Shown piece by piece: positions 1 to 1,029 of a stretch of 64,000 nucleotides of DNA. Made by a program: the position numbers and the translations under genes. The notes below the pieces were generated by a model that saw only the letters and a program-made list of their open reading frames with translations, was not told where the DNA came from and ran no database searches. Numbering within the stretch: position 1 is the stretch's first letter; every line of letters starts with the position of its first letter. The DNA comes from a virus (Duplodnaviria > Caudoviricetes): positions 64,001-128,000 of IMG/VR virus record IMGVR_UViG_3300032307_000764; one strand, 5' to 3'.

Positions 1-1029
1 GAACAAACTGTAAATTTTTCTGGAAAGGATTTACAGCAAAACAGTTCTGAAAGAATTCTAATCACTGATTTTGATCAGAGTAAAGGAGTTGCTTTAGGTG
101 AAACCCCTTTTGGACAAACCATTATCATAGATACTAAGAAGGAAGAAAAGCACATGAGAAAGCTTGGATATCCTGCAATAGAAATAACACCAGGACAAGT
201 TCTTGATGTTGTTATACACAGAGATCTTTCGGGATCTTTCAACGGTTCAGTTTCTGCTGGATACGAAAAAGCGCTTAAAGCTGAATTGCACAGATCTATT
301 AAAGACGAGGATTGTGCATTTAAAGTTAGAGTTAAGAATGTTTGTAACGGAGGATTCATGGTGGATCTTTCGGGAATCGAATGTTTCTTACCTGGAAGTT
401 TAGCAGCGGCTAATAGAATTATGAATTTCGCAGACTATGTTGGCAAACAATTAACAGTCATGGTTGAGATTTATGATCAGAAAAGAGATATCTTCGTTGT
501 TTCATTCAAAAAATATTTGAAGAAAATTATTGATGGAGAAGCTAGAGGACTTTCTTTCTCTAATAAATATCAAGGAAATGTTACAGGAGCTTCCGGTAAT
601 GGAGTTTTTGTTGAATGGGATGAGATCTTCACTGGTATAATTCCTATCGATGATTCTAATAGAGAAAAATTATTAGATTTAAAAACAGGTGATTCTGTTG
701 AATTCTATGTAACAGACATTAAAAATCCGCAAAGAATAGTACTTTCTTTACTTGAACCAAATGAAAAACTCCGAACAATTCAGAAATTAAAAGATTCTTC
801 TGCTGAAGCTTTAGGGGAAAATACTGAATTGCAAATATATAAAGGAGAGGTTACCAAGTTAAAGACATTCGGTGTATTCGTTAAACTTGAAAATGGTTTA
901 TCAGGATTGATCGAAAAAGAGAAATTGGTTAACCCTATTAAAGATTATGAGGTTGGTCAATTGGTTAATTGCTCGATCTCGAGTGTGGATTTATCCTCAC
1001 TTAAAATACAATTAATAGAGCAAGAATAA
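1..1029 (+). CDS. rpsA: Ribosomal protein bS1-like multi-S1-domain protein (5' truncated by window edge)
   Basis: Frame 1 is open from base 1 (EQTVNFSGKD...) through the track ATG at 154. About 4 S1/OB repeats: VRVKNVCNGGFMVDLSGIECFLPGS, YQGNVTGASGNGVFVEW, YKGEVTKLKTFGVFVKLENGLSGLI. Confidence 0.75.
   Translation, partial: EQTVNFSGKDLQQNSSERILITDFDQSKGVALGETPFGQTIIIDTKKEEKHMRKLGYPAIEITPGQVLDVVIHRDLSGSFNGSVSAGYEKALKAELHRSIKDEDCAFKVRVKNVCNGGFMVDLSGIECFLPGSLAAANRIMNFADYVGKQLTVMVEIYDQKRDIFVVSFKKYLKKIIDGEARGLSFSNKYQGNVTGASGNGVFVEWDEIFTGIIPIDDSNREKLLDLKTGDSVEFYVTDIKNPQRIVLSLLEPNEKLRTIQKLKDSSAEALGENTELQIYKGEVTKLKTFGVFVKLENGLSGLIEKEKLVNPIKDYEVGQLVNCSISSVDLSSLKIQLIEQE

Follow-up and report, generated by a model that had tools for sequence, protein, structure and literature searches.

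A shortened bS1-like protein encoded among the baseplate genes of an uncultured freshwater phage and its plausible docking on ribosomal protein uS2

Introduction

Phage genes for proteins with S1 domains and a role proposed for them have been known since 2020, when Al-Shayeb et al. (Nature, PMC7162821) reported "possible rpS1" genes in genomes with missing Shine-Dalgarno (SD) sites and suggested that their products redirect translation initiation. Up to six S1 domains were found in these proteins, without domain-level or docking analysis (PMC7162821). A description of bS1 in a cultured cyanophage followed in 2026 (PMC13157829). According to the crystal and cryo-EM data for the E. coli S1–S2 pair, the N-terminal helix of S1 stacks on the Phe32 strand of S2, and the β2–β3 loop of the first domain (D1) reaches the zinc pocket of S2 with its residues His18, Asp188, Asp204 and Asp205 (PMC4288201). 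In F. johnsoniae bS1 carries a helix-loop-helix (residues 4–40) that is kept in place by uS2 and uS8, its aromatic stretch FLANFNWHNF lying on uS8 (PMC13000457). The phage protein described here is a well-supported derivative of bS1 with a plausible anchor predicted by modelling, and only the rigid position of its gene among baseplate genes and the ligase-like partner go beyond prior knowledge.

The S1-like gene and its genome

The stretch of DNA analysed (the window, 64,000 nucleotides) covers bases 64001–128000 of a 248,191-bp linear IMG/VR genome of an uncultured freshwater virus, estimated by CheckV as 85% complete. An open reading frame (ORF) with S1 domains fills positions 1–1029 of its plus strand and is cut by the left (5') window edge. 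The true 5' end of the gene, named in the preliminary description as a point to settle, was recovered in the full record: the gene occupies genome positions 63917–65029 (L001:1417–2529), codes for 370 aa and starts with an ATG 84 nt before the window. The same start is used by most relatives, which begin with MK.KNY, and an alternative TTG start is possible 51 nt upstream of this ATG. The gene is present in the record in one copy, and a gene for bS21 was not found in this 85% complete record. A tmRNA is encoded by the phage outside the window, at genome positions 136909–137400 (L006:9909–10400), as predicted by ARAGORN and by Rfam (RF00023, 73.4 bits vs a gathering score of 47); since host bS1 takes part in trans-translation, a link between this tmRNA and the phage S1 is possible. 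ARAGORN also detected a single tRNA-Arg (CCG) at genome positions 226126–226209, outside the window, and no tRNA within it.

Domain build and relation to bS1

Pfam recognises three S1 stretches in the protein (E 2e-19), and its AlphaFold model, obtained with 26 sequences (pLDDT 82), contains a helix at residues 13–26 and four OB barrels joined by helices, in line with the count of about four S1 domains given previously. The gene and its barrels are located in the window as follows, the nucleotide for any residue being (residue − 29) × 3 + 1:

1..1029, + strand: S1-like gene, residues 29–370 and the stop codon; the first 28 codons lie at L001:1417–1500
43..249, + strand: barrel 1, residues 43–111; D1-like, by fold only
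319..504, + strand: barrel 2, residues 135–196; specific match to bS1 domain 2, with CFLPGSLAAANRI invariant
565..747, + strand: barrel 3, residues 217–277; diverged S1 domain, closest (weakly) to D5 of host bS1
835..1020, + strand: barrel 4, residues 307–368; canonical RNA-binding type S1, best match host bS1 D5, FGVFV motif kept

The search of PDB sequences with the single protein returned S1 proteins only, all of them bacterial bS1 except one plastid S1 homologue. Matches below 1e-9 were all bS1 (best E 2e-18 for the single protein and 3e-27 for the family profile), while PNPase, RNase and Rrp5 were many orders weaker in the family-profile search. Residues 87–202 align with residues 59–175 of E. 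coli bS1, that is with the end of D1 and with D2, and the motif GGFMVDLSGIECFLPGS corresponds to GGFTVELNGIRAFLPGS in domain 2 of the E. coli protein. The five best NCBIfam models are all rpsA or the IspH-S1 fusion and align colinearly (TIGR00717 positions 56–340), with scores of about 85 bits (best 85.6, its cut-off 577) that lie below the curated cut-offs of 368–918; five genuine Bacteroidota bS1 also fall just under the rpsA cut-off (511–569 bits), their scores being about six times that of the phage protein. The best hit of Foldseek was ribosome-bound E. coli bS1 on 30S (9gut_B, E 3e-21), the D1–D2 chains 9guq_B and 8peg_Z gave TM values of 0.70–0.72 by target, and RNase II/R, NusA, PNPase and Spt6 appeared at 1e-5 or worse. 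Neither a PHROGs family nor any structural-protein family matched the protein.

A separate profile of each phage S1 segment was compared with bS1 from five Bacteroidota genomes. The profile of barrel 2, which is nearly invariant and forms the most conserved part of the family, recognised only D2 of the five proteins (26–29 bits, with no more than 2.6 for any other domain). Barrel 4 preferred host D5 (24–27 bits) over D4 (9–17) and D3 (6–11), and the weak profile of barrel 3 had its best match mostly in D5 as well (up to 10 bits). For barrel 1 there was no sequence match to the five bS1. The N-terminal 135 residues alone matched no PDB sequence, and as a 25-sequence profile they hit, at chance level (E 0.45), a single unrelated protein and no bS1, so that the likeness of barrel 1 to D1 is one of fold. 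Its β2–β3 loop, residues 61–67 with invariant E62, G66 and Q67, falls within the predicted uS2 interface considered below. Upstream of it, the profile of residues 10–30 matched the stretch directly before D1 in four of the five hosts, and residues 11–27 (YTAEEREKLESLYSKSF) can be aligned with the helix that precedes D1 in host bS1, for instance with YTKEEKEKYHTVYDNTF of Chitinophagaceae. Only the second helix is kept in the window's lineage, the first, aromatic one being cut to about six residues, YSCFEY. The sampled Bacteroidota hosts carry FNW or FDW at the position of the aromatic helix, and the open frames of their bS1 span ~600–690 aa. Such triplets are also kept in remoter phage S1 proteins (FNWE in P0128 and FDWENY in P0141). 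Barrel 3 has Pro, and barrel 4 an invariant Glu, in place of the His that is canonical on the RNA-binding face of S1, which counts against the role proposed below.

Given these segment matches of helix and barrels, the protein is not a plain D1–D4 truncation: its build comprises the second anchor helix, a D1-like barrel, a true D2 and two RNA-type barrels. The idea of a shortened bS1 put forward in the preliminary description is supported by both sequence and fold searches, which rank bS1 first; a better fit to Tex, RNase or PNPase was looked for in the HMM and structure comparisons and did not appear, so the protein can be classed as a shortened bS1 derivative and not as one of those types. 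As to the single domains, the likeness of the first two to D1 and D2 stood for barrel 2 with its D2-specific profile, and for barrel 1 it held by fold and failed by sequence. The later domains proved to be RNA-type S1 barrels as assumed, but closest to host D5 and not simply to D3–D4.

Predicted docking on uS2

Residues 1–135 of the phage S1 (25-row alignment) were modelled in complex with uS2 of F. johnsoniae, used as a stand-in for the host protein. The median run reached an ipSAE of 0.74, while the best of three controls gave 0.00; the ipSAE mark was reached by solved complexes in 58 of 80 cases and by mismatched pairs in 2 of 110. At least 72% of contacts were shared between runs, and the partner pLDDT was at least 76. 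The predicted interface joins phage residues 19–27 and 60–70 to uS2 residues 14–20, 29–46 and 204–210, and includes the family-invariant Y23, E62, G66 and Q67, the overall share of invariant residues in it (5/16 vs ~3.3 expected) being not significant. S1–uS2 complexes have been solved, among them the N-terminal domain of E. coli bS1 bound to uS2 (PDB entry 4TOI), and the pass of the complex model may reflect its memory of them. For this reason, and because uS2 is a stand-in, the model supports likeness to the known complex, not binding by the phage copy. Read in this way, it makes it plausible that the N-terminal half carries a uS2-docking surface, and the phage S1 probably docks on the host ribosome.

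Conservation of the protein family

A word-indexed search gave 431 relatives; the matches listed are 50–96% identical, almost all of them 367–394 aa long, and come from contigs of up to 320 kb. Identity in this range, a fixed length of 367–375 aa and the nearly invariant barrel 2 are signs of strong purifying selection. The family is widespread in fresh water. In an exhaustive search it proved to be large, with 1924 cluster representatives at E<=0.001, and all but four of the best 150 of these have at most 476 aa, which means that short phage-type proteins outrank classical bS1. A tree was built for the region from the end of D1 through D2 with 15 phage-type representatives and 21 bacterial bS1. 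The phage proteins fell there into a single long-branched clade (99/100), and none of the 21 bacterial bS1 grouped with them; the phage S1 proteins of ~380 aa thus make up one old clade. The tree names no donor phylum, and the region scores do not favour Bacteroidota. When 185,579 species genomes were scanned for two peptides of the family, no cellular protein with those patterns turned up. In the same tree bS1 from a MAG labelled Variovorax paradoxus (L197) grouped inside Flavobacteriia and Chitinophagia; this contig is probably mis-binned. Most sequencing runs with the gene contain small shares of it, and four short contigs of 90–99% identity come from two freshwater RNA libraries. One of them (222 nt) spans the junction of S1 with the next gene, g63, and is a weak hint; a contig from an RNA library proves neither transcription nor a single transcript.

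The baseplate block and the partner gene g63

The S1-like gene had been described as a neighbour of the virion module. It is more than adjacent, lying inside the baseplate block in 80 of the 80 related viral contigs. In the window it is followed by these genes:

1031..2473, + strand: g63, 480 aa; begins with TTG 1 nt beyond the S1 stop; glutamine-synthetase/YbdK-like ligase fold, then a pentapeptide-repeat beta-helix
2479..5377, + strand: baseplate genes g64 and g65, which in relatives are T4 gp13-like and gp25/GpW-like, respectively, and g66 (baseplate J / gp6-like)

At all 80 loci the order is fixed: a hub gene (gp5/gp27-like), a giant ORF (absent in a few), S1, g63, g64, the gp25-like gene and baseplate J. 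The same order is found in phages with S1 only 31–37% identical. The product of g64 (window 2479–3258) matches the PHROG "head-tail adaptor Ad2" here and PF26809 (Phage_T4_gp13, neck protein) in remote relatives; a neck-type gene within a baseplate block is odd. In a sister lineage (L082:5948–7171) the S1 protein has 407 aa, and its additional aromatic stretch at the N-terminus, YTDYFEENFY, is reminiscent of the uS8-contacting helix of Bacteroidia; the 1699-aa giant ORF is absent upstream of this S1 gene, and a 159-aa ORF stands between S1 and g63. L089 and L092 showed the same tblastn pattern and are likely to be arranged in the same way.

S1 and g63 are adjacent at 80 of 80 loci. At 58 of these g63 begins with a TTG placed between −23 and +4 nt relative to the stop of S1; at the other 22 it begins with an ATG, and a spacer of 68 nt or more separates the two genes. 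This association of TTG with abutting or overlapping genes and of ATG with a spacer points to coupled translation of S1 and g63. In INPHARED g63 occurs in six records, each of which has an S1-like gene too, the two genes being far apart in five of them. In the model of the g63 protein (pLDDT 84) a fold like that of glutamine synthetase and YbdK precedes a pentapeptide-repeat helix, and GxEFE as well as further acidic, His and Arg residues are invariant. Its best folds are glutamine synthetase, GshAB and YbdK, with E from 4e-5 to 6e-3 and low TM (0.24–0.31 for glutamine synthetase). The Pfam family Amidoligase_2 (PF12224) was matched with 17.6 bits, under the gathering score of 22, and the nearest Atlas clusters, all of them viral, have PF12224 on 12–29% of their members.

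Leaders, regulatory signals and the probable host

The preliminary description noted A-rich leaders without SD sites, and genome-wide statistics agree with it. An SD 4-mer at positions −20..−5 precedes 8.8% of 308 ORFs, vs 13.9% of random 16-mers. The frequency of G upstream of the starts is ~0.10, and A peaks at −11 to −13 (0.55–0.64) and at −3 (0.57), a richness in A that follows the Bacteroidia pattern. The baseplate J protein is closest to those of huge uncultured phages and of Lak (Prevotella), Tenacibaculum, Chryseobacterium and Flavobacterium phages, and for the phage GDP-mannose dehydratase the closest cellular enzymes belong to Muribaculaceae, Prolixibacteraceae, Ferruginibacter, Ignavibacteria and Chitinophagaceae. 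An early-promoter-like box, GGAATCATTTTTT...TAGAAAATTCTATAT(TTG/TAG), occurs in ~35 intergenic regions at ~163–195 kb of the genome (L007–L009), outside the window, and ends in a TAnnTTTG-like element ~20 nt after TTTG. The promoter consensus of Bacteroidota (sigma-A) is TTTG...TAnnTTTG, and its resemblance to this box supports a Bacteroidota host. Leaders, baseplate J, dehydratase and early promoters together point to a host of Bacteroidota type.

Near the S1-like gene a sigma-70 promoter scan gave no more matches than shuffled sequences did, and a terminator was not detected in its vicinity. A T4-like late motif, ATAAATAC, located 21 nt before the S1 start, was discarded, as it is not enriched before other genes. 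The 55 nt before the start (L001:1362–1416) also contain a box, TTGGAAATTTT, followed ~17 nt on by (C)TAnAA and kept across diverged relatives. This box does not recur before other genes of the genome, and no conserved hairpin accompanies it; it could be a gene-specific promoter or operator.

Proposed role and rival explanations

Taken together, the data incline us, with reserve, to the view that this bS1-derived protein docks on the 30S subunit of Bacteroidota via uS2 and captures A-rich leaders devoid of SD. The N-terminal helix (residues 13–27) and the β2–β3 loop of barrel 1 would dock on uS2 at the usual site of host bS1, barrel 2 would complete the anchor on 30S, and the two C-terminal S1 barrels would hold single-stranded A-rich leaders, by which SD-less mRNAs would be brought to the mRNA channel. 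Ribosome docking, RNA capture, preference for phage messages and the timing are all features that we infer. Replacement of host bS1 in favour of phage mRNAs, the mechanism given in the preliminary description and already proposed in 2020, is plausible. A role on the ribosome alone would leave unexplained why the gene keeps so rigidly to a structural operon and why a ligase-like gene abuts it.

One can assume, instead, that the protein binds A/U-rich phage RNAs off the ribosome, as a chaperone, an RNase shield, a nuclease cofactor (as host S1 is for T4 RegB) or a partner of tmRNA. Two barrels of RNA-binding type and the tmRNA encoded by the phage are in line with such a function, a part of host bS1 in the action of RegB and Q-beta replicase and in trans-translation is known (reviewed in PMC13157829), and Al-Shayeb et al. 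left open whether the phage proteins work "on or off the ribosome" (PMC7162821). However, the most conserved parts are barrel 2 and the D1 loop, which in bS1 bind protein and not RNA, and the predicted uS2 interface reproduces known docking contacts; we consider this explanation unlikely. Retention of the anchor elements with reduction of the RNA-binding part from four barrels to two, as well as loss of the canonical His positions in barrels 3 and 4, would also suit a decoy that occupies the bS1 site on uS2, supports initiation poorly and shuts off host translation by blocking bS1-dependent messages. For host shut-off the timing would be odd, the gene being in a late-looking structural block. 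Moreover, the SD-less, A-rich leaders of the phage are of the type that needs bS1 in Bacteroidia, so that a pure block would harm the phage too, which renders the decoy very unlikely.

The baseplate position and g63 admit another reading, in which S1 forms a two-protein module with g63, as its substrate, targeting subunit or partner, or serves as an assembly or structural factor of the baseplate; tail assembly might also be the task of both proteins. Adjacency of the pair at 80 of 80 loci, with abutting TTG in 58 and ATG after a spacer in 22, its persistence where S1 is only 31–37% identical, the S1-like gene in all six INPHARED records with g63, and the GxEFE, acidic, Arg and His residues kept by g63 on a ligase-like fold all argue for it. 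On the other side, only one of the six huge-phage records has the two genes close together, the S1-like protein matches no family of structural proteins, and S1 lacks the capsid-targeting-like N-terminal tag found with a loose regular expression on 44 proteins of the genome. All these phages belong to one broad lineage, and co-inheritance alone could therefore explain the pairing. A module of this kind seems quite unlikely to us. A conjecture at long odds is a two-protein device in which S1 docks on the 30S platform and either brings an ATP-dependent amide ligase there or is itself the ligase substrate; the phage would in this way chemically modify the site of initiation in the host, perhaps those proteins by which the anti-SD is masked in Bacteroidia, and would do more than add a spare S1.

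If the preferred reading, docking on 30S via uS2, is true, the phage protein would represent a natural minimal bS1, an anchor with two RNA barrels, tuned to SD-less initiation. The selection of start codons in Bacteroidia is still an open question (PMC13000457), for which a minimal bS1 that docks would be a handy study tool. It would also be the first bench-testable case for the proposal of 2020 that large phages swap loosely bound ribosomal proteins in favour of their own messages, and, as the family is large and widespread in fresh water, the result would apply to many phages. The conserved ligase-like partner g63 is a lead that could change the picture.

Comparison with known systems

With E. 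coli bS1 on uS2 the predicted phage contacts share both elements, repeating C1 (the helix on the Phe32 strand) and C2 (the D1 loop on the zinc pocket) (PMC4288201; 6BU8, 9GUQ). The stacking Phe5 and Phe9 of E. coli would be replaced by Leu19, Leu22, Tyr23 and Phe27 of the phage as predicted contacts, and Asp39 and Lys43 have no clear phage counterparts beyond the invariant Glu62 and Gln67. Bacteroidota bS1 has the same N-terminal helix, D1 with D2 and RNA-binding barrels, the pre-D1 pattern Y-x7-L-x3-Y-x3-F/L is common to both, and both operate in a setting of SD-less, A-rich leaders. The phage protein differs by four barrels in 370 aa against six in ~590–690 aa in the host; its aromatic uS8-contacting helix is almost gone, D1 is unrecognisable by sequence, and the last barrels are like D5. 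Ligases of the Amidoligase_2 (PF12224)/YbdK type resemble g63 in the N-terminal GxExE strand, the acidic and Arg residues and the fold, and g63 departs from them by the sub-cut-off Pfam score, the low TM and the fusion to pentapeptide repeats.

The "possible rpS1" of Al-Shayeb et al. is the same kind of multi-S1 phage protein, encoded here at 80 viral loci, and the genome analysed here is likewise one without recognisable SD. Homologs with 26–31% identity are present in the records of uncultured phages LR756500–LR756504 and LR745206 (462–735 kb), of which LR756501 and LR756503, with 735,411 bp, agree in length with the largest genome of the 2020 study, and phage S1 homologs also occur in Lak phages of Prevotella. 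In contrast to them, the proteins described here make up a tight four-barrel lineage of 367–375 aa from 250–320 kb phages, their genes having a constant place in the baseplate block and a ligase-like gene abutting them.
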